Assembly: GCA_016704275.1 (NCBI GenBank)
Contig: JADJAK010000001.1
Coordinates: forward strand, 496,985 to 560,984
Direction: 5' to 3'
From: Gemmatimonadota bacterium
GTDB lineage: Bacteria; Gemmatimonadota; Gemmatimonadetes; Gemmatimonadales; GWC2-71-9
DNA: 64,000 bases
Shown here: positions 6,078 through 53,532 of the stretch, piece by piece
Layout: each line of letters opens with the position of its first letter
How positions within the stretch are numbered: position 1 is the stretch's first letter
Translations under genes and position numbers: made by a program
Notes under the pieces: generated by a model
What the model was told of the DNA's origin: nothing
The model's input: the letters and a program-made list of their open reading frames with translations, nothing else
Database searches by the model: none

Positions 6078-7698
6078 ATGGCCGTACCCGCCCTGCACGC
6101 GCCCAATGCGGCGCTGCTGATCGACTTCGACAATGTGACCCTTGGCGTTCGTTCCGACCTCACCAAGGAACTCCGCACCCTCCTCAACTCCGACATCATC
6201 AAGGGCAAGGTCGCCGTTCAGCGCGCCTATGCCGACTGGCGCCGCTACCCGCAGTACATCGTGCCGCTGTCGGAATCCTCGATCGACCTGATTTTCGCCC
6301 CCGCCTTCGGCACCAACAAGAAGAACGCCACCGACATCCGGCTCGCCGTCGATGCGGTGGAGCTCGTCTTCACGCGTCCCGAGATCGGCACCTTCATCCT
6401 GCTCTCGGGTGACAGCGATTTCTCGTCGCTCGTGCTCAAGCTGAAGGAGTACGGCAAGTACGTCATCGGGGTCGGTATCCGTGAGTCGGCGTCCGACATC
6501 CTGATCCAGAATTGCGACGAGTACTTCTCGTACTCCGACCTCGCGGGCCTGACCAAGGAGAGCGACGCCCCGTCGGCGCAGCGCGATCCGTGGGAGCTCG
6601 TGGTCGAGGCCGTGCAGAAGATGGCGGCGCAGGGCGACGTCATGCGTTCCGATCGCCTGAAGCAGGTCATGCAGCAGCTCGACCCGAACTTCGACGAGAG
6701 CAACGCCGGCTTCAATCGCTTCTCGAAGTTCGTCACCGAGGCGGGTGCGCGCGGCCTGATCCAGGTGATCAAGCAGGAGAACGGTCAGTACGACGTCGCG
6801 CCGGGCAAGGGTGTGCCGGGTCGCGCCGGTGAAGGAGAGCCGCCCGCCGCGCGGTCGCGGCGGACGTGGTCCGGCGACGGCAGCGGTCGTTACGCCGGCG
6901 CCTGCGGTACGCGCCGTCGAGGCCGCACCGGCCGATGGCAAGTCCGCCGAAGAGCGGGCTGGGCGTCGTCGCGGTCGGGGTCGTGGACGCGGGCGCGGGA
7001 AGGGTGAGGAGGGCGCCACTCCGTCGATCGCCGCGCCGAGTGCCGCGGCACCGTCGGCGCCGTATGTCGCCGAGCCGAGTGGGCTGACCCTTGCCGAGTC
7101 GTTCCATCTCCTCGGTCGTGCGCTTGGCGAATTGCCGACGCCGGCCGGTCACGAGGTGGTGCGGGCCCGCATGGCCGCCCTGCACGGCACCGAGGATGTG
7201 TTGCTCGAAGTGCCGCGCTTCTTCAAGCTGCTGCGCCAGGCCAACGACGCCGAAGTCGCCGATGTCCGCCTGCTCGGCGACGATCAGTACGAGGTGTCGC
7301 CGCACCGGATGGAGTTGGCGATGCAGCGTCGGTCGGCGCCCGAAGCGAACGCGGCCCCGGTGCTCGACGCCGATGGCAATGCGGCACCGCGTCCGGGGAT
7401 CCGTTTCCGTGGCGGTGCGCGCACCCCGGCATCCTCCGGGATGCCGATGGTCGGTGTGATCAACCTCACGCCGGTTGGTGCAGTGACGCTCGAGGCGCCG
7501 GCGGCGAAGCCGGCGGCCGAGGCCGCCACCAAGGCGACCAAGCCGGCCAAGGGTCCCAAGCCCGAGGCGAAGCCCGCCGCGAAGGCCGCCAAGGCAGCTG
7601 CCCCGGCGAAGCAGGCCAAGACGGCGAAGGCCGCCGCCAAGCCCGCGCCGAAGGCCAAGGCGGCCGTGAAGAAGGCGGCGCCCAAAAAGAAGTCGTAA
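6078..7698 (+). pseudogene. NYN (LabA-like) ribonuclease-domain protein with two OST-HTH/LOTUS domains, an RG-rich linker and a Lys/Ala-rich H1-like tail, split over two frames (apparent 1-nt frame change near 6795-6830)
   Basis: Frame of 6042: NYN motifs 'LLIDFDNV', 'NATDIRLAVDAVEL', 'FILLSGDSDFSSLVLKLKEYGKYVIGVG', then a LOTUS domain ending 'ENGQYDVAPG'. Frame of 6811: 'RGRGGRG...RGRGRGRGRGKG', a second LOTUS-like domain ending 'GDDQYEVSP', then 'AKPAAKAAKAAAPAKQAKTAKAAAKPAPKAKAAVKKAAPKKKS'. The two ORFs overlap by about 200 nt, which is implausible for separate genes. Confidence 0.7.
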
Positions 7699-7720
7699 GT
7701 CGTAGGTCGTAGGTCGTAGG
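7692..7720 (+). repeat. tandem heptamer array GTCGTAA-(GTCGTAG)x3, an orphan arm of the heptad element family
   Basis: Read directly. The first unit supplies the TAA stop of the upstream gene (..AAG TCG TAA). Stops at 7696, 7703 and 7710 fall in three different frames. Confidence 0.85.
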
Positions 7721-11355: not shown

Positions 11356-11559
11356 ATGGCTACCAAGAAGGCTGCGAAGAAGGCCGCGAAGCGGCCGGCG
11401 AAGAAGGCCGCGAAGAAGGCTGCCAAGCGTCCGGCGAAGAAGGCCGCGAAGAAGGGCGCGAAGAAGGCTGCCAAGCGTCCGGCGAAGAAGGCTGCCAAGA
11501 AGGCCGCCAAGCGTCCGGCGAAGAAGGCCGCCAAGAAGGCCGCGAAGAAGGCTGCGTAA
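11356..11559 (+). CDS. histone H1-like Lys/Ala-rich DNA-binding protein (67 aa)
   Basis: ATG preceded by GGGAGG. Protein is 'MATKKAAKKAAKRPAKKAAKK...' throughout. Followed by a strong hairpin terminator. The track ORF start at 11248 is probably too far upstream. Confidence 0.75.
   Translation: MATKKAAKKAAKRPAKKAAKKAAKRPAKKAAKKGAKKAAKRPAKKAAKKAAKRPAKKAAKKAAKKAA
11365..11556 (+). repeat. in-frame coding tandem repeat (12-nt KKAA sub-unit organised in 36/48-nt KRPAKKAAKKAA units)
   Basis: KRP recurs at residues 12, 24, 40 and 52. The DNA units 'aagcgtccggcgaagaaggc(c/t)gc(c/g)aagaaggc...' are near-identical. Confidence 0.85.
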
Positions 11560-12547: not shown

Positions 12548-13702
12548 TCAATCCGCTCGGAGGATGGCCCCCTTCAAATAGCCGGTTTCCGGGATGGTGA
12601 TGACCTCCGGATGGTCGACGCCCTGGCCCAGCACACTGTGCAGCGTCAGCCGGCGGCCACTGTCGGCGGCGGCCCCGGCGAGCATCGCGAGGAATTCCGG
12701 TCGCCGCACGTGGAAGGAACAGGAGGCGCTGACGAGCCAGCCCCCCGGGGCCAGCAGGCGCATCGCCCGGCGATTGACCTCATGGTAGCCGCGGAGCGCG
12801 GCGGGGACGCTGGCCTTGCTCTTCGCGAAGGCCGGCGGGTCGACCACGACGACATCGAAGCGGCGGCCCTCGCGCCCCCAGGCCGGGAGGACGTCGAAGG
12901 CGTCGCCGGTCACGAACTCGATCTGGCCGAAGCCGTTGAGCGCCGCGTGCTCTGCCCCACGGGCGAGCGCGTCCGCCGAGACGTCGAGCGCCGTCACGGC
13001 GGAGGCGCGCTGCGCGAGGTGGAGCGCAAAGGAGCCATGGTAGGAGAAGCAGTCGAGCGCGGTGCCGCCCTCCGGGACGAGGGCGCCGGCGAGTTGGCGG
13101 TTCTCCCGCTGGTCGAGAAAGGCGCCGGTCTTCTGTCCGGTCCACGGCGCGGCGTACCAGCGCACCGACCCCTCGCGCACCTCGACCTGTTCCGGCACCG
13201 TCCCCATCGCGAGCTCGACGCGATCGTCGAGCCCCTCGAGCCGGCGGGTGGGGACGTCGTGTCGGAGGAGAATCCCCTCGGGCTGGAACACCTCGCGAAG
13301 CGCCTCGACAATCATCGCCCGCTGCGTCTCAAGACCGGCCGAGAGCAGCTGCACCACGAGCCATCGGTCGTAGCGGTCGACGATCAATGCCGGGAGCCCG
13401 TCGCCCTCGGCGTGCACCGCGCGCCACGCCGAGGCATCGAGACCGAGCCGCCGGTCGCGGCATTCAGTGAGCCGCTCGCGCCACCAGCCACCATCGATCG
13501 GGACGTCGCGCCGCTCGAGCAGGCGCAGGCGGATCTCCGAGCTCGGCGAGCAGAGTGCCCGCCCGAGAAAGCGGCCGCGTCCGTCGCGCACCGCGACCAC
13601 GCCAGCTTCCGGCGGGTGCTCGCGCACGTCGCTTCGGTAAATCCACGGGTGGCCCGTGGTCCATCGCTTGGCCCCGCGATCGCTCACGATGGCGTCGGTC
13701 AT
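12548..13702 (-). CDS. rlmI: class I SAM-dependent rRNA methyltransferase, RlmI-like (PUA + MTase)
   Basis: 'GHPWIYRSDV' PUA-like N-terminus, 'WTGQKTGAFLDQRENR', 'ALDCFSYHGSFALH', 'VVVDPPAFAKSK'. Canonical RlmI/YwbD-family blocks. Confidence 0.85.
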   Translation of the reverse strand: MTDAIVSDRGAKRWTTGHPWIYRSDVREHPPEAGVVAVRDGRGRFLGRALCSPSSEIRLRLLERRDVPIDGGWWRERLTECRDRRLGLDASAWRAVHAEGDGLPALIVDRYDRWLVVQLLSAGLETQRAMIVEALREVFQPEGILLRHDVPTRRLEGLDDRVELAMGTVPEQVEVREGSVRWYAAPWTGQKTGAFLDQRENRQLAGALVPEGGTALDCFSYHGSFALHLAQRASAVTALDVSADALARGAEHAALNGFGQIEFVTGDAFDVLPAWGREGRRFDVVVVDPPAFAKSKASVPAALRGYHEVNRRAMRLLAPGGWLVSASCSFHVRRPEFLAMLAGAAADSGRRLTLHSVLGQGVDHPEVITIPETGYLKGAILRAD

Positions 13703-13753
13703 CGGTCCCTCCGGCTGGCGTTGCCGGGGCGACCCCCGCTGATTTCGTTCCGC

Positions 13754-14377
13754 ATGCGCGAGAATCTAGCCGCCACCCTCCGTCTCCTGCTCGTGACCGA
13801 CGACGCCCTGCTGGGCGCGCGCGACCCGATCGCCGTGGCGCGCGCCGCCGTCGCGGGAGGCGTCACCGCCATTCAGCTCCGGCTCAAGCACGCCACCGAT
13901 CGCGACCTTCTCGCGCTGGCCCGCCACCTCGTGGCGCTCCTGCCGGTCCCGATCTTCGTCAACGACCGGCTCGACATCGCCATCGCCGCCGGCGCGGCGG
14001 GCGTCCATCTCGGCGCCGACGACCTCCCGCCAGCCCGGGCCCGGCGAATCGTCCCCGCGGGATTCCTCCTGGGTGCGTCGGTGGGCAGTCACGCCGAAAT
14101 CGAGCGCGGGCTCGCCGCCGACTATTGGGGCATCGGGCCGCTGCATGGCACCCGCACCAAGGATGATGCCGGCCTGGCCCTCGGACGCGATGGGGCCGCG
14201 ATGCTGCTGGCGGCGGCGGGCACTCGTCCATGCGTGGTCATCGGTGGCGTACAGCCGGAGGATGTCGCGCCGGCGCTCGCCGCAGGCTTTGCGGGCGTCG
14301 CCGTGGCGAGCGGGATTCTGGGGGGGGAGGATGTGGAGGGGGGGGCGAGGAAGTACCGGATGATGGATGATGGATGA
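13754..14377 (+). CDS. thiE: thiamine-phosphate synthase
   Basis: Last 207 codons of track ORF 11666..14377: 'LLLVTDD...GGVTAIQLRLK...IFVNDRLDIAIAAGAAGVHLGADD...GASVGS...YWGIGPLHGTRTK...VIGGV...GVAVASGIL'. The C-terminal 'RMMDDG*' is encoded by the heptamer repeat. Confidence 0.9.
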   Translation: MRENLAATLRLLLVTDDALLGARDPIAVARAAVAGGVTAIQLRLKHATDRDLLALARHLVALLPVPIFVNDRLDIAIAAGAAGVHLGADDLPPARARRIVPAGFLLGASVGSHAEIERGLAADYWGIGPLHGTRTKDDAGLALGRDGAAMLLAAAGTRPCVVIGGVQPEDVAPALAAGFAGVAVASGILGGEDVEGGARKYRMMDDG

Positions 14378-14545
14378 TGGATAATTGCAGAATGCTGTCA
14401 TCCTGAGCGGAGCAGCCCGCAGGGCTGCGCAGTCGAAGGACCTCTTCCCCGAAGCGCTCGGAGAGGGGTCCTTCGACTTCGCGACGGCTACGCCGCCGCT
14501 TCGCTCAGGATGACAATTCCATCACCCATCATCCATCATCCATCG
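14358..14545. repeat. composite nested palindromic element (heptad arms plus inner inverted repeats)
   Basis: Outer arms are (GGATGAT)x3-GGATAAT at 14358-14385 and (ATCATCC)n at about 14521-14545. Inner perfect 14-bp IR TGTCATCCTGAGCG (14396-14409) / CGCTCAGGATGACA (14502-14515). 7-bp hairpin GCAGCCC-gca-GGGCTGC. 11-bp IR GTCGAAGGACC (14432-14442) / GGTCCTTCGAC (14467-14477). Confidence 0.9.
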
Positions 14546-14548
14546 TCC

Positions 14549-15514
14549 CTATCGGCCTCGCACCTGCTTGATATTCCGCAAATGCTGCGAGTACTCCACC
14601 GCAAAGAGATGCGTCCCGTCGCCCACGGCGACGAAGTAGAGCTCGCGCCCCGGGGCGGGGGAGAGCACCGCCTCGATCGCGGCATCGCTCGGGTTGCCGA
14701 TCGGTGTCGGTGGCAGGCCGGTGTGGAGATAGCTGTTGTAGGGTGACGGGTAGGCGTAATCCTTGTTGTAGAGCCGCGGCTTCCGCGCGCCCGAATCGAC
14801 CAGGTAGGCGTACTGGATTGTCGGGTCGGCCTGGAGGGGCATGCCCAGGCGGAGCCGGTTCCGATAGACGGCCGCGATCCGCGGCAGCTCGACGGCGCGC
14901 ATCGCCTCGGCCTCGATGATCGAAGCGAGGGAGATCACGTCGGCCTGGTCGAGGTCGGCGGCGTCGGCACGTGCCTTCCAATCAGCCGGCCAATGCGAAC
15001 GGCGGGCGTCGAGGAACGCCTCGAGCACCTCCTTCGCTCCGCCGAGACCGGTGAAGGTGAAGGTGACCGGACGGAGCCACCCTTCGACGGTGGCACCCGG
15101 GATCCCGAATTCCCGGCGCAGGGCGCTGTCGCGGGCCGCGCGGAGCAAGGTGTCGGCGGGAATCGCCAGCACACTCTCGGCCCGGCGGGCGAGGTCGAAG
15201 AGCGTGGCGCCTTCGGGGAGCGTGATCTTGAATCGGACGGCATCGCCGCTCGCCAGCCGGTCGAGCAGTGCGGCGGTCGAACTGCCGGGGACGAATTCGT
15301 AGACGCCGGGCTTGAGCCGCCGATCGACACCCTGCATCCGCCCACGCAGCCGGAACCAGCGCGCGTTGGCGATGATGCCACGCGCCACGAGCGAGTCGCC
15401 GATGCTGGCCAGCGTGCTCCCCTTGGGGACGCCCACGCGGACCGCCGGACCGTCGCCTCCGCCACACGCGGTGAGGAGAGCGAGCGCCACGAACGCCACG
15501 CGCCGGCGGCTCAT
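14549..15514 (-). CDS. mltG: endolytic murein transglycosylase MltG (YceG-like)
   Basis: Signal-anchor 'MSRRRVAFVALALLTACGG'. YceG blocks 'ASIIEAEA', 'VYRNRLRLGMPLQADPTIQYA', 'YNSYLHTGLPPTPIGNPS'. Follows ruvX as in many bacteria. Start taken at the internal Met (aa 8 of the track ORF). Confidence 0.88.
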   Translation of the reverse strand: MSRRRVAFVALALLTACGGGDGPAVRVGVPKGSTLASIGDSLVARGIIANARWFRLRGRMQGVDRRLKPGVYEFVPGSSTAALLDRLASGDAVRFKITLPEGATLFDLARRAESVLAIPADTLLRAARDSALRREFGIPGATVEGWLRPVTFTFTGLGGAKEVLEAFLDARRSHWPADWKARADAADLDQADVISLASIIEAEAMRAVELPRIAAVYRNRLRLGMPLQADPTIQYAYLVDSGARKPRLYNKDYAYPSPYNSYLHTGLPPTPIGNPSDAAIEAVLSPAPGRELYFVAVGDGTHLFAVEYSQHLRNIKQVRGR

Positions 15515-15996
15515 TTCCGCCTCGCGTCGAGCCAACGCTCCAGCACGATCGCGGCGGCCATCGCATCGATGTCGGCCTTCCGCTGGCGCGGGGCGATGCC
15601 GCGCTCGGTCAGCCGCTCGAGCGTTTCGGCGGTCGTGAAGCTCTCATCGATCCACGCGATCGGCAGCGATGCGCGGGCTGCGAACTGCTCCCCCATGGCG
15701 CGTGCTGCCAGCGCGGACTCTCCTTCGGCCCCCTCGTCATCGAGGGGGAGCCCGACCACCAGGCCGACCGGATGCTCGCGCTCGACCAGATCGAGAAACT
15801 GCCCCAACGGCAAGCGTTTCCCCGCCCGGCGCGTGAGCGTGCCGAGCGGGGAGGCGAGAAGCTGCGTCTCATCGGTGATCGCGACGCCGATGCGGGCGTG
15901 GCCCCAGTCGAGGGCCAGGACGCGGCCAGTGTGGATGGTCGTGGAGGCGGTGTAGGTCGATGAGTCGTAGTCGATCGAGGGGGGGTCATCGATCAT
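15511..15996 (-). CDS. ruvX: Holliday junction resolvase-like nuclease RuvX/YqgF
   Basis: 'RVLALDWGHARIGVAITDE...PLGTL...VGLVVGLPLDDEG...' YqgF family. The first ~25 codons overlap a repeat region, so the true start may be further downstream. Confidence 0.8.
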   Translation of the reverse strand: MIDDPPSIDYDSSTYTASTTIHTGRVLALDWGHARIGVAITDETQLLASPLGTLTRRAGKRLPLGQFLDLVEREHPVGLVVGLPLDDEGAEGESALAARAMGEQFAARASLPIAWIDESFTTAETLERLTERGIAPRQRKADIDAMAAAIVLERWLDARRK

Positions 15997-16008
15997 CGAT
16001 TCCGAACC

Positions 16009-27348: not shown

Positions 27349-27405
27349 GCGAGAAGCGAGCAGCGAGAAGCGAGAGCGGAGTCGTAAGTCGGTCGTAGGT
27401 CGAGG
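27349..27405. repeat. two abutting 7-nt periodic arrays in a divergent promoter region
   Basis: GCGAGAA-GCGAGCA-GCGAGAA-GCGAGAG (27349-27376), then GTCGTAA-GTCG-GTCGTAG-GTCGAGG (27381-27405). Confidence 0.8.
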
Positions 27406-28772: not shown

Positions 28773-28889
28773 TCGATGATCGATGATCGATGATCGATGA
28801 TCGATGGTCGAGTGGCGGGAACGGGGAGAGAGTGTTCGGTAACGAACCGTGGCTGATCGATCATCGATCATCGCCCATCGATCATCGAG
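28773..28889. repeat. heptad inverted-repeat element (TCGATGA arms)
   Basis: Left arm (TCGATGA)x4-TCGATGG-TCGAG at 28773-28812, starting right after the Nramp TAG. Right arm CTGATCGATCATCGATCATCGCCCATCGATCATCGAG at 28853-28889. The spacer contains the mini-hairpin GTTCG-GTAA-CGAAC. Confidence 0.9.
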
Positions 28890-37276: not shown

Positions 37277-37350
37277 TGGGCCCGGCGCGATTCGAACGCG
37301 CGACCTCTTGCTCCGGAGGCAAGCGCTCTATCCAGCTGAGCTACGGACCC
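37277..37350 (-). tRNA. tRNA-Arg (anticodon CCG)
   Basis: Hand-folded cloverleaf: GGGTCCG/CGGGCCC acceptor, anticodon loop CTCCGGA, T-arm GCGCG-TTCGAAT-CGCGC. 74 nt. CCA not encoded. Confidence 0.9.
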
Positions 37351-37361
37351 CTTTGTTCTAG

Positions 37362-37436
37362 TCGGGGCGAGAGGATTTGAACCTCCGGCCTCCTGCTCCC
37401 GAAGCAGGCGCGCTAACCGGGCTGCGCTACGCCCCG
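37362..37436 (-). tRNA. tRNA-Pro (anticodon CGG)
   Basis: CGGGGCG/CGCCCCG acceptor, anticodon stem-loop CCTGC-TTCGGGA-GCAGG, T-loop TTCAAAT. 75 nt. Confidence 0.9.
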
Positions 37437-37474
37437 AATACTCTGTTGGTGCCGACGGACGGCACCGCACTGCA

Positions 37475-37548
37475 TGGGCCCAAAGGGAGTCGAACCCCTA
37501 ACCTTCTGATCCGTAGTCAGATGCTCTATCCAGTTGAGCTATGGACCC
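37475..37548 (-). tRNA. tRNA-Arg (anticodon ACG)
   Basis: GGGTCCA/TGGGCCC acceptor, anticodon stem-loop TCTGA-CTACGGA-TCAGA, T-loop TTCGACT. 74 nt. Confidence 0.9.
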
Positions 37549-37576
37549 CTACCCCTGCAACTGCAACTCGAATCCA

Positions 37577-37650
37577 TGGGCGGTACAAGACTCGAACTTG
37601 TGACCTCCACGATGTCAACGTGGCGCTCTAACCAACTGAGCTAACCGCCC
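37577..37650 (-). tRNA. tRNA-Val (anticodon GAC)
   Basis: GGGCGGT/ACCGCCC acceptor, anticodon stem-loop CCACG-TTGACAT-CGTGG, T-loop TTCGAGT. 74 nt. Confidence 0.9.
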
Positions 37651-37704
37651 GATCACAACAACGGGCAGACGACCCTGGGGCCGACTGCCCGTCGCCGTCC
37701 TGCA

Positions 37705-37778
37705 TGGCGGGGGTGGGATTTGAACCCACGACCTCCGGGTTATGAGCCCGGCGAGCTACCAGACTGCTCCACCCCGCG
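37705..37778 (-). tRNA. initiator tRNA-fMet (anticodon CAT)
   Basis: Near-identical to the E. coli tRNAfMet layout as I recall it. 5' CGCGGGG with an unpaired 1:72 position (C1 opposite C72). Three consecutive G:C pairs closing the anticodon loop (CCGGG-CTCATAA-CCCGG). 74 nt. Confidence 0.85.
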
Positions 37779-37795
37779 ACGTTTTCTCTGCTCAG

Positions 37796-37868
37796 AGCGG
37801 GAAACGGGACTCGAACCCGCGACCCCAACCTTGGCAAGGTTGTGCTCTACCAACTGAGCTATTCCCGC
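37796..37868 (-). tRNA. tRNA-Gly (anticodon GCC)
   Basis: GCGGGAA/TTCCCGC acceptor, discriminator U, anticodon stem-loop CAACC-TTGCCAA-GGTTG. 73 nt. Confidence 0.9.
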
Positions 37869-37949
37869 AACTTCCCGATCAAGGGAGGCCCAACCTACCC
37901 GGCCCCTCGACTCTACGCAACCGGTCGACCTTCCAACCGGTCGTGGGAG

Positions 37950-38022
<73 letters not shown>

Positions 38023-41600: not shown

Positions 41601-41603
41601 GCA

Positions 41604-41694
41604 GTCGTTAGTCGTTGGTCGTTAGTCATAGGGGCTCCGGCCCGTGAGATCATCGATGGCGCGCCCCAACGACTAACGACTAACGACCAACGAC
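41604..41694. repeat. heptad inverted-repeat element (GTCGTTA arms)
   Basis: Left arm GTCGTTA-GTCGTTG-GTCGTTA-GTCATAG-G at 41604-41631, 3 nt after the mlaD TAG. Right arm AACGACTAACGACTAACGACCAACGAC at 41668-41694. Spacer of about 36 nt. Confidence 0.9.
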
Positions 41695-41704
41695 TTCGAG
41701 CCCC

Positions 41705-44674: not shown

Positions 44675-45553
44675 ATGGCGACCAATCGCGCGCTCAAGGG
44701 ACGGATTCGTTCCGTCACCAACACGCGGAAGATCACGCGGACGATGGAGCTCGTCTCCACGTCCAAGCTGAAGCGCGCCCAGGACCGCGTGGTCGCCGCC
44801 CGGCCGTACGCCGAGGCGCTGCGCCAGGTCATTGCCGACCTGGTGACGCCGGAACTGGCGGAGCGCTTTCCGCTGCTGCGGAGTCCGCAGTCCCCGGCGA
44901 AGGGCGGGCCGTCGCGTGCGGTGATCATCCTCGTCACGTCGAATCGCGGGCTGGCGGGTGGCTTCAATGCCAACCTGATCAAGGAAGCCCGTCGTCGGAT
45001 CGACGCGCTCGAGGCCGAGGGCTATCAGGTCGAGCTCGTCGGGGTCGGCAAGAAGGGTATCGGCTTCTTCAAGTATCTCGGCCGCGCCTTCCGGAGCGAG
45101 CGCCCCGACATCGGCGACCGCCCGACGGCGGAGCATGCCGTCTCGCTGGTGCAGGACCTGATGGATGGCTTCGCCGACGGCAGCATCGGCGTCGTCGAAC
45201 TGGTGCAGTCGCGCTTCATCTCGGTGCTGAACTCGCCGCCGGCCACCATCCGCATCCTGCCGATCACGCCGCCCGAGCAGCAGGCCGGTGGCGTGCGTCC
45301 GGACTACATCCTGTCGCCCGATCCCGAGACGCTGCTGGAGCAGGTGCTCCCGCTCTACGTCCGGAACATGATGTACCGCGGCCTGGTCGAGACCGTGGCC
45401 GCAGAGCATGCGGCGCGCCGCACCGCGATGAAGAACGCCACCGACAACGCCGGCGACCTCATCGATGCGCTGAAGCGGACGTACAACCGCCAGCGTCAGG
45501 CGCAGATCACGCAGGAAATCGCCGAGCTGGTCGGCGGCGCTGCCGCACTTTAA
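44675..45553 (+). CDS. atpG: F0F1 ATP synthase subunit gamma
   Basis: 'MATNRALKGRIRSVTNTRKITRTMELVSTSKLKRAQ' and C-terminus 'YNRQRQAQITQEIAELVGGAAAL'. Start is 2 nt after the atpA stop. Confidence 0.93.
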   Translation: MATNRALKGRIRSVTNTRKITRTMELVSTSKLKRAQDRVVAARPYAEALRQVIADLVTPELAERFPLLRSPQSPAKGGPSRAVIILVTSNRGLAGGFNANLIKEARRRIDALEAEGYQVELVGVGKKGIGFFKYLGRAFRSERPDIGDRPTAEHAVSLVQDLMDGFADGSIGVVELVQSRFISVLNSPPATIRILPITPPEQQAGGVRPDYILSPDPETLLEQVLPLYVRNMMYRGLVETVAAEHAARRTAMKNATDNAGDLIDALKRTYNRQRQAQITQEIAELVGGAAAL

Positions 45554-47041
<1,488 letters not shown>

Positions 47042-52886: not shown

Positions 52887-53455
52887 TGCGCCGCATGCTT
52901 CGTAGTGCCTCGTTCCTCGTCGCCGTGACGGTCCTCGCCAGCGGCTGCGGGTACAACTCGCTGCAGGGGCTCGATGAGCAGGTGAACAAGGCCAAGGGAC
53001 AGATCGAGGTGCAGTTGCAGCGCCGTGCCGACCTGATCCCGAACCTGGTGGCCACCGTGAAGGGGGTCGCCGCGCAGGAGACGACGGTGTTCATCGCCGT
53101 CGCCGAGGCGCGCGCCAAGCTCTCCGGCGCGGTGCAGGGCGGCAATCTCGGCGAGATGGCCAATGCCAACCAGGCACTGACCGCGCCGCTCGGGCGCTTG
53201 ATTGCCATCTCGGAGGCGTATCCGGAACTCAAGAGCAACGCGAACTTCCTGCAGTTGCAGGATCAGCTCGAGGGGACGGAGAACCGGATCGCGGTCGCGC
53301 GGACGGACTACAACACCGCCGTGGAGCAGTTCAACACCACGACGCGGAAGTTTCCGACCAACCTGACGGCGAAGATGTTCGGCTTGGGGAAGGCGCGCGA
53401 GTACTTCGAGGTCACGACGCCGGGTGCGAAGGATGCGCCGGCGGTGAAGTTCTGA
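52883..53455 (+). CDS. lemA: LemA family protein
   Basis: Lipobox-like 'VLASGCGYNSLQ', 'QLQRRADLIPNLV', 'EAYPELKSNANFLQLQDQLEGTENRIAVAR.DYN'. Canonical LemA. 4-nt overlap with the NTase gene. Confidence 0.9.
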   Translation: MMRRMLRSASFLVAVTVLASGCGYNSLQGLDEQVNKAKGQIEVQLQRRADLIPNLVATVKGVAAQETTVFIAVAEARAKLSGAVQGGNLGEMANANQALTAPLGRLIAISEAYPELKSNANFLQLQDQLEGTENRIAVARTDYNTAVEQFNTTTRKFPTNLTAKMFGLGKAREYFEVTTPGAKDAPAVKF

Positions 53456-53459
53456 AGGG

Positions 53460-53532
53460 GTCGTAAGTCGTAGGTCGTAAGTCGTAGGTCAGTCGCCACA
53501 GGACCTACGACCTATGACATATGACTTACGAC
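53460..53532. repeat. heptad inverted-repeat element (GTCGTAR arms), ~31-bp stem with 11-nt loop
   Basis: Left arm at 53460-53490 and right arm at 53502-53532. 27 of 31 positions are complementary and 2 more are G.U-compatible. It lies between convergent lemA and metG, and the metG TAA is inside the right arm. Confidence 0.92.

Follow-up and report, generated by a model that had tools for sequence, protein, structure and literature searches.

The window analyzed in this study is a stretch of 64,000 nucleotides (nt) from the genome of a Gemmatimonadota bacterium (GenBank assembly GCA_016704275.1, contig JADJAK010000001.1). In this window, thiE, which encodes thiamine-phosphate synthase, and mltG of the YceG family converge, and a composite hairpin occupies the whole interval between their two stop codons (Table 1). 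Two arms of tandem 7-nt repeats (heptads), which are complementary to each other, enclose a palindromic inner element of 120 nt (the core). Comparisons with other genomes show that arms and core are independent layers, because a related thiE/mltG junction (L005) keeps the arms without the core and because most core copies, of at least 120 loci, are without heptad arms. At the thiE/mltG locus itself, insertion of the core into the loop of a pre-existing hairpin is favored, because the L005 junction is an empty site.

The preliminary description of this locus, which was made from the DNA letters without database searches, had reported the outer arms, a 14-bp inverted repeat, a 7-bp hairpin and an 11-bp inverted repeat, and all of them were recovered at the same coordinates when the sequence was reread and run through a repeat finder. 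The array of the right arm was also present, but Tandem Repeats Finder (TRF) ended it at 14548, 3 nt past the end given before (14545). The mltG stop codon was just outside the arm as had been claimed, at a distance of 3 nt, not 4 nt, from that earlier arm end; as drawn by TRF, the right arm directly adjoins the stop codon at 14549-14551. The 11-bp inverted repeat (GTCGAAGGACC / GGTCCTTCGAC, 14432-14442 / 14467-14477) can be extended to 19 nt with 89% complementarity (14427-14445 / 14464-14482). The asymmetric linker TGCAGAATGC between the left arm and the core probably arrived with the core, because it is found in a relative that has the core (L004) and is missing from the empty site of L005. 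In L004, the position of side hairpin 2 is taken by another hairpin, GCCCGCttcGCGGGC. The 13-mer end of the core occurs in the window only at the thiE/mltG locus. The heptad GGATGAT and the core's own end GGATGAC (14508-14515) are alike at 6 of 7 positions, and local pairing of the left arm (14358-14385) with the left end of the core is also possible. Outward promoter-like matches to ATGACA-N16/18-CATCAT, at 9 of 12 positions, were seen at 14374-14401 on the minus strand and at 14510-14539 on the plus strand; these matches at the two core/arm junctions are probably a by-product of the symmetry.

The composite was predicted to fold stably. For the 207-nt region, a free energy of -129.3 kcal/mol (z = -12.5) was obtained when it was folded as RNA and of -72.8 kcal/mol (z = -10.8) when it was folded as DNA. 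The inner 120 nt, folded as RNA, gave -84.5 and -87.4 kcal/mol for the two strands (z = -9 and -11, respectively). In the minimum free energy fold, the left arm (14358-14385) was paired with 14526-14548. The predicted fold of the inner 120 nt is a four-way junction on either strand, of which side hairpin 2 is a part. The DNA beyond the arms is GC-rich coding sequence. A search for GGATGATGGATGAT with at most 2 mismatches gave 10 matches, compared with 0.37 expected.

Table 1. Coordinates of the features at the thiE/mltG locus and of the heptad arrays in the 64-kb window.
Feature	Position	Strand	Evidence or remark
thiE (thiamine-phosphate synthase)	13754-14377	+	Pfam TMP-TENI, E = 2.9e-43, residues 11-188; homologs found
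Left arm, (GGATGAT)x3 + GGATAAT	14358-14385	+	repeat finder, TRF
Linker TGCAGAATGC, asymmetric	14386-14395	+	comparison with L004 and L005
Inner palindromic element (core), GTCATCCTGAGCG...GAAGGAYC family	14396-14515	.	RNA folds, family scan
Left terminal inverted repeat TGTCATCCTGAGCG	14396-14409	+	perfect, 14 bp; partner 14502-14515
Side hairpin 1, GCAGCCC-gca-GGGCTGC	14412-14428	+	7 bp; stems 14412-14418 / 14422-14428
Central hairpin with conserved subterminal block GAAGGACC / GGTCCTTC	14427-14482	+	inverted repeat, RNA fold
Side hairpin 2, GCGACGGC-tac-GCCGCCGC	14481-14499	+	imperfect, 8 bp; missed by the preliminary description
Right terminal inverted repeat CGCTCAGGATGACA	14502-14515	+	complement of 14396-14409
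Right arm, (TCCATCA)x4.4	14518-14548	+	TRF; complementary to the left arm except for 2-3 substitutions
mltG (YceG family)	14549-15535	-	Pfam YceG, E = 8.5e-72; start codon uncertain
(GTCGTAG)x4 array	7692-7720	+	overlaps the stop of a Lys/Ala-rich protein gene
GGATGAT / TCCATCA pair	14358 / 14518		thiE/mltG locus
TCATCGA array	15986-16000		TRF
GCGAGAA array	27349-27402		TRF
(TCGATGA)x5.6 / (ATCGATC)x4.7 hairpin	28773-28888, second arm 28856	+	1 nt after a stop, without inner element
(AGTCGTT) / (AACGACT) hairpin	41603-41695, second arm 41668	+	3 nt after a stop
Self-complementary array ATCGATGATCGATC x2.6 (ATCGATG / ATCGATC)	45553-45588	+	overlaps a stop, upstream of an ATP synthase beta-like gene
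(GTCGTAA/G) / (GACCTAC) hairpin	53460-53532, second arm 53502	+	between converging stops at 53455 and 53526

The named ThiE homologs came from Gemmatimonadota and Gemmatimonadales sources, and the gene order methyltransferase, thiE, mltG, ruvX and rho was kept in the recovered contigs. The junction of L005 (ThiE identity 80%) reads (GGATGAT)3 ... (CACCCCT)4 ... (ATCCATC)3 without the inner element. In L004 (81%), the left arm of the window, the linker TTGCAGAATGC and the core are followed on the right side by (CACCCCT)3 and then by (CGACCTA)4, which is non-complementary to the left arm. The junction of L003 (89%) consists of (GTGACCA)n and (TTACTGG)n, and that of L001 (87%) of a self-complementary ATCGATC / ATCGATG array between genes just 4 nt apart. 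A metagenome scan added 80 further thiE loci. Period-7 or period-8 arrays with many different units were found at 23 of 49 distinct converging thiE/mltG junctions, and an element of the core family at 6 of them. Moreover, differing core variants were accompanied by differing junctions (L128, L138/L139, L161, and L143): the core of L138/L139, with the ends GTCATCCCGAACG, is nested in a 13-bp palindrome that is not a repeat, and the core of L161 has arms of octads. Similarly, the rho-ruvX junction has a hairpin at a constant place with varying units. The heptad hairpins keep their position and architecture but not their repeat unit, and some lineages have a period of 8 instead of 7 (e.g., GCGGGGCA / CTGCCCCG).

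Even among strains with 99% ThiE identity the right arm differs, with CACCC in the window, CACCA in L137 and CATCC in L140. Comparison with L140 revealed no hypermutation of the inner element, whose sequence is identical to that of the window. The 3' end of mltG beside the hairpin (14566-14590) differs from that of L140 by 9 substitutions in 25 nt, which looks like a small recombination patch. The ends of short-read contigs from the close relatives L126, L127, and L138 fall within heptads or the inner palindrome. Of the lineages with GGATGAT arms, about 3 of 4 had cores at the thiE junction, vs. 3 of about 45 others; these are small numbers from phylogenetically non-independent lineages.

The arrays also reach into the coding sequence. 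The heptad repeat makes up the final 20 nt of thiE, including its TGA stop codon, and the codons CGG ATG ATG GAT GAT GGA TGA lie inside the heptads; translation agreed with the earlier statement that ThiE ends in KYRMMDDG and that its last codons and stop come from repeat units. When ThiE orthologs were compared, as the preliminary description had proposed, the tail turned out to be lineage-specific. Only 4 of 120 homologs end in MMDDG, and in the 3 of these 4 whose contigs were read GGATGAT arrays were present. Conserved ThiE ends near ...AARRY(R). Other tails among the 120 homologs read like translated units of other repeats, and two tails run into core-family sequence (...FATLRMTE and ...SSRTQRETCL). 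The RMMDDG tail is a by-product of the array reaching into thiE, because MMDDG is limited to lineages with GGATGAT arms and because the other tails resemble other units.

Similar arrays are present elsewhere in the window. With a TRF score of at least 40 and at least 3 copies, 11 period-7 arrays were found, vs. 0 in 30 dinucleotide-preserving shuffles, and other periods were rare. They were grouped into eight loci, most of which are complementary inverted pairs, and seven of the eight overlap a stop codon or begin 0-5 nt from one. The paired loci fold at -48 to -72 kcal/mol and the short self-complementary arrays at about -22 kcal/mol. Hairpin-plus-T-run terminators in the window numbered 21, compared with about 20 expected, and thus were not enriched. 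In most units of the window, the sense arm includes a stop triplet (TGA, TAA, or TAG), and GC-rich units with none were found in relatives. A rule by which units would supply stop codons in all three frames was dropped, as only about half of the distinct units at the thiE loci of relatives contain stops. A small repertoire of units recurred across loci and genomes (L001, L003, L005, L012, and the window), namely ATCATCC, ATCATCG, AACGACT, ACCTACG, AAGCGAG, ACCCCTC, and AACGGTG. The units GTCGTAA / GTCGTAG (53460-53490 and 7692-7720) resemble the conserved 3' segment of 16S rRNA, AAGTCGTAACAAGG, probably by coincidence. In addition to the heptads, other tandem repeats occur in the window, with periods of 24, 36, and 48 nt at 11365-11556 and of 9-12 nt at 7528-7595 and with units such as AAGAAGGCCGCG. 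Units of this type would encode Lys/Ala-rich, histone-H1-like segments of low complexity, and one such gene ends within the array at 7692. Finally, a cluster of seven tRNA genes is located at 37277-38022 on the minus strand.

The core belongs to a family that is widespread. A scan of one genome per GTDB species for GTCATCCTGAGCG-N70-100-CGCTCAGGATGAC with exact paired ends identified at least 120 genome loci from a dozen or more phyla. The matches listed include Bacteroidota (many from cultured Hymenobacter and Flavobacterium), Acidobacteriota (Granulicella rosea), Actinomycetota (Bifidobacterium, Gordonibacter), Planctomycetota, Chloroflexota, Gemmatimonadales, Clostridia, Treponemataceae, Verrucomicrobiota, Proteobacteria, Bdellovibrionales, Patescibacteria, and Eremiobacterota. 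The resemblance to a palindromic repeat of soil bacteria, which the preliminary description had suggested, thus led to a real family whose range is broader than soil, as it includes gut Clostridia, Bifidobacterium, and Treponemataceae. Its consensus consists of the 14-nt ends YGTCATCCTGAGCG, a short variable linker that sometimes forms a side hairpin, (AGTC)GAAGGAYC, a center and then the mirror image. The terminal inverted repeats were conserved as YGTCATCCTGAGCG in 108 simple copies and are in this respect ends of the type found in miniature transposable elements with inverted repeats (MITEs). The ends read (T/C)GTCATCC and are without the GTAG or CGTC head of REP/REPIN. Among the matches listed, the center is self-complementary yet different in almost every copy, the copies lie between 37 converging, 51 co-directional and 10 diverging gene pairs, and the core lies a median of 29 nt past the upstream stop codon. 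Each half of the core can form only a 5-bp local stem, ATCCT/AGGAT. Within each arm of the core, the ATCCY/RGGAT positions covaried, with 145 (T,A), 4 (C,G), 1 (T,G), and 0 (C,A) pairs, and the rare ATCCC end variant, seen in about 3 independent elements, was always paired with a GGGAT subterminal block. This covariation points either to a short local pairing or to a recurring motif that would be recognized by a protein.

No mobility gene or known family was found for the core. Around the copies, direct repeats (2-8 nt long, offsets 0-6 nt) were about as frequent as in the controls, and no target-site duplication was evident at thiE/mltG in comparison with the empty site of L005. In an all-against-all comparison of 3,978 open reading frames from 120 loci, only ABC ATPases, SDRs, and ECF sigma factors were recurrent, and no RAYT gene was found near any copy listed within windows of 8 kb. 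Rfam searches of the locus at E <= 10 returned only sub-threshold matches to miRNA precursors, as for a generic long hairpin, and at the gathering score the whole window and 18 other family loci gave only tRNAs. The six translated frames of the core had no significant Pfam or NCBIfam family. The search of PLSDB yielded only chance matches of 47 nt inside Rhizobium flagellin genes, and that of IMG/VR 8 contigs with a short-spacer form, none with the subtype of the window. Literature searches with the DNA strings and with encoded peptides (VILSEAKDL, HPERSEG, FAQDD, and others) found no relevant paper, CATCCTGAGCG appeared only in unrelated papers on other subjects, and a pan-prokaryote survey of MITEs was without mention of the element. 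Multiplied forms were also seen in the family. In L047 (2611-2880), there are 4 left ends with a 26-nt period and 6 right ends with a 23-nt period, and their spacers are non-complementary; multiplied ends on both sides of the core are found in L027 (4009-4136), L019, and L049 as well. In L054 of Eremiobacterota (6309-7260), 7 whole elements stand in tandem with a 136-nt period.

The earlier suggestion of one repeat inside another is borne out by the arms-only hairpins at L005 and at seven loci of the window together with the armless cores. It has to be modified for the outer arms, which are not copies of one mobile repeat and instead form a class of hairpins with locus-specific units. At 25 of 121 cores, compared with about 1 expected, the complementarity of the flanks exceeded the 99th percentile of shuffled pairings; among these flanks, those of three Hymenobacter loci (L014, L030, and L101) and of L012, an unrelated locus in Gemmatimonadales, are tandem-repeat arms. 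Inverted heptad pairs were also located within 8 kb of the cores at L006, L017, L023, L039, L046, L055, L088, L102, and L107, which belong to Bacteroidota, Chloroflexia, Fimbriimonadales, and Clostridiales. In L046, 9 arrays were counted in 8 kb. All of these occurrences come from core-bearing genomes.

Given these results, the explanation that we regard as rather probable is that two independent hairpin layers, a heptad stem-loop and an inserted palindrome, are combined in a structure that functions at the 3' ends of both genes or is simply tolerated there. A heptad stem-loop fills the gap between thiE and mltG, and its array has expanded into thiE, where it supplies the last codons and the stop. 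The arms probably arise through replication slippage of 7-nt units, and their complementarity would be kept by template switching between the halves of the quasi-palindrome. Template switching in quasi-palindromes is established in E. coli. A copy of the inner palindrome would then have been inserted in the loop. As the core is itself a hairpin that would extend the stem coaxially without breaking the stem-loop, the insertion was probably tolerated, and the composite at this locus is probably a harmless, tolerated insertion of a repeat into a hairpin. The core would spread without target duplication, possibly through an HUH/REPIN-like or hairpin-targeting route with a putative enzyme. The composite most likely serves, or is tolerated, as a bidirectional 3'-end structure for both converging transcripts; such a structure would terminate transcription without a U-tract, protect the 3' ends of the mRNAs, or do both. 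Such a role would fit the enrichment of inverted repeats just past stop codons in all bacterial phyla (PMC13155455) and the lack of canonical terminators at this locus. Among the long simple repeats of bacteria, heptamers show the strongest over-representation (PMC4679880, PMC4692102).

Several results weigh against this explanation. There is no U-tract or A-tract after the hairpin and no terminator-like site in 13600-15700, and the stems of 25-35 bp are several times the length of a typical terminator. The folding energies of sense and antisense strands of the heptad hairpins showed no consistent difference, and those of 51 oriented core copies did not differ significantly either (Wilcoxon p = 0.18). 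With no sense-strand bias in stability, selection at the RNA level is not demonstrated, and the role as a bidirectional terminator or stabilizer is what we infer from sequence. The heptad locus at 27349-27402, the sole exception to the siting at stop codons, lies between diverging genes, as does the composite in L012. In addition, the window and L004 share about 90% identity in the core with its linker and left junction, compared with 77% in thiE, and neither the presence of the core nor the type of heptad unit tracks the thiE tree. The direction of the event at thiE/mltG is unproven for these two reasons, and lateral replacement of the whole cassette, or precise loss of the core in L005, is possible. 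The intergenic cassette thus has a history of its own, whether by repeated targeted insertion, lateral replacement, or precise loss.

That the whole 190 nt is one mobile MITE with the heptad arrays as its terminal inverted repeats would account for inverted arms around a structured core, here and in the three Hymenobacter loci. It is refuted by the separate occurrence of the two layers, that is, by the arms without a core in L005, the core with a non-complementary (CGACCTA)n right arm in L004, more than 100 cores without such arms and seven heptad loci of the window without a core, as well as by the lack of a target-site duplication; this also settles the alternative of a single element with terminal inverted repeats and target duplication that the preliminary description had named. 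Growth in the opposite order, with the palindrome first and the arms made at its stem base, where the hairpin would induce slippage or snap-back synthesis would occur so that the palindrome extends itself, is suggested by the extended complementary flanks of 21% of the cores, by the tandemly multiplied ends on both sides in L047, L027, L019, and L049, and by the match of GGATGAT to the end of the element. We consider it unlikely, as most heptad hairpins are coreless, including that of L005 at the same locus, the spacers of the left and right arrays of L047 are non-complementary, and quite different arm units surround similar cores. A broader proposal unites both processes: the core would be an undescribed family of palindromic DNA, with identical 13-14-nt ends in more than 10 phyla and with neither target duplication nor a linked transposase, that homes into the apex of existing 3'-end hairpins or seeds such hairpins. 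The same hairpin dynamics (slippage at the stem base and template switching between arms) would also give rise to the locus-specific heptad or octad arms. The joint result would be terminator cassettes that extend themselves, can be exchanged laterally and have a history independent of the neighboring genes. We hold this proposal to be doubtful.

The inner element might instead be a functional structured RNA, such as a 3'-UTR, an RNase III-processed element, or a small RNA, with the four-way junction under selection. Its very stable fold, its higher identity between the window and L004 than that of the adjacent thiE, the short median distance of the copies from stop codons and the T:A to C:G covariation are consistent with this idea. 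It is nevertheless improbable, because neither this copy nor the 18 other loci matched Rfam, both strands fold equally well without excess stability of the sense strand, the center varies in nearly every copy, and the conservation of a palindromic stem points to recognition of double-stranded or hairpin DNA. Recognition at the DNA level, in which the element would be a protein-binding site or a cruciform that acts in chromosome biology or gene regulation and not at transcript 3' ends, would agree with the identity of the 13-14-nt ends across phyla, with the stable DNA fold and with the covarying AGGAT, of which each element has four copies and which hints at a protein that binds this sequence specifically; the weak outward promoter-like matches at the core/arm junctions could be cited as well, but they are partial and follow automatically from the symmetry. 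As no candidate protein or recurrent neighbor gene was found in the 120 loci and the family is biased toward gene 3' ends, we give this possibility little credence.

The interest of the locus is that it reveals two widespread, poorly described kinds of hairpin DNA that are recurrently nested; for the most part, neither repeat class seems to have been described before. The excess of 7-nt repeats in bacterial intergenic DNA, which was recognized in 2007 and still lacks an accepted explanation, becomes testable, as the heptads here have a clear anatomy of complementary inverted arrays, long stems at stop codons and turnover of the unit at a fixed position. The exact core ends from Bacteroidota to Actinomycetota and Acidobacteriota, without target-site duplication or a visible transposase, suggest an unrecognized mobilizing enzyme or recognition by a housekeeping protein. 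For annotation, it is relevant that such palindromes break short-read assemblies and create spurious open reading frames and lineage-specific tails, such as the MMDDG of ThiE.

Intergenic heptanucleotide repeats are known from cyanobacteria (STRR), Xanthomonas (GGGAATC), and Nostoc (GGGGAYT) (PMC4692102) and from Beggiatoaceae (TAACTGA) (PMC4679880). No report of such repeats was found in the literature for Gemmatimonadota, and the window units GGATGAT, TCGATGA, AGTCGTT, GTCGTAR, and GCGAGAA match none of CCCCAGT, TTGGTCA, CAACAGT, GGGAATC, and TAACTGA. Similar to the known repeats, those of this study are tandem 7-nt units (here with at least 3 copies) that are over-represented and nearly all intergenic, and their copy number and sequence vary among close relatives at shared junctions. 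Some Xanthomonas GGGAATC arrays also occur as inverted pairs, and forward arrays of the Beggiatoaceae TAACTGA overlap stop codons and provide stops in each of the three frames, which is also true of GGATGAT at thiE/mltG. Different from the described families, however, the units are locus-specific with a small shared repertoire (ATCATCC, ATCATCG, AACGACT, ACCTACG, and AAGCGAG), the arrays are mostly complementary inverted pairs with stems of 25-35 bp, and they adjoin stop codons instead of start codons and have no G-quadruplex potential.

Like REP/REPIN sequences, the core is a non-coding hairpin of about 100 nt with two inverted halves, variable loops and no target duplication, and it is found mostly just downstream of genes. 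Unlike those sequences, which are mobilized by RAYT (TnpA-REP) transposases, it has no GTAG/CGTC tag at its ends, and its 13-mer end is common to many phyla, in contrast to the species-specific REPs. With MITEs, the core shares perfect 14-bp terminal inverted repeats, a small size, numerous copies and the lack of coding capacity; it differs from them by the absence of target duplication and of an identified cognate insertion sequence and by a center that is near-unique yet self-complementary. The stable GC-rich hairpin right after both stop codons recalls Rho-independent terminators, including bidirectional ones; different from them, the locus has no U- or A-tract, its stem is several times longer and canonical sites are not enriched in the window. 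Finally, the composite is analogous to the eukaryotic foldback transposons, in which long inverted arms of short tandem repeats flank a central domain. The resemblance is by analogy only, as those transposons belong to another domain of life, and the arms of the thiE/mltG hairpin are not copies of a common element and the composite gives no sign of moving as a unit.

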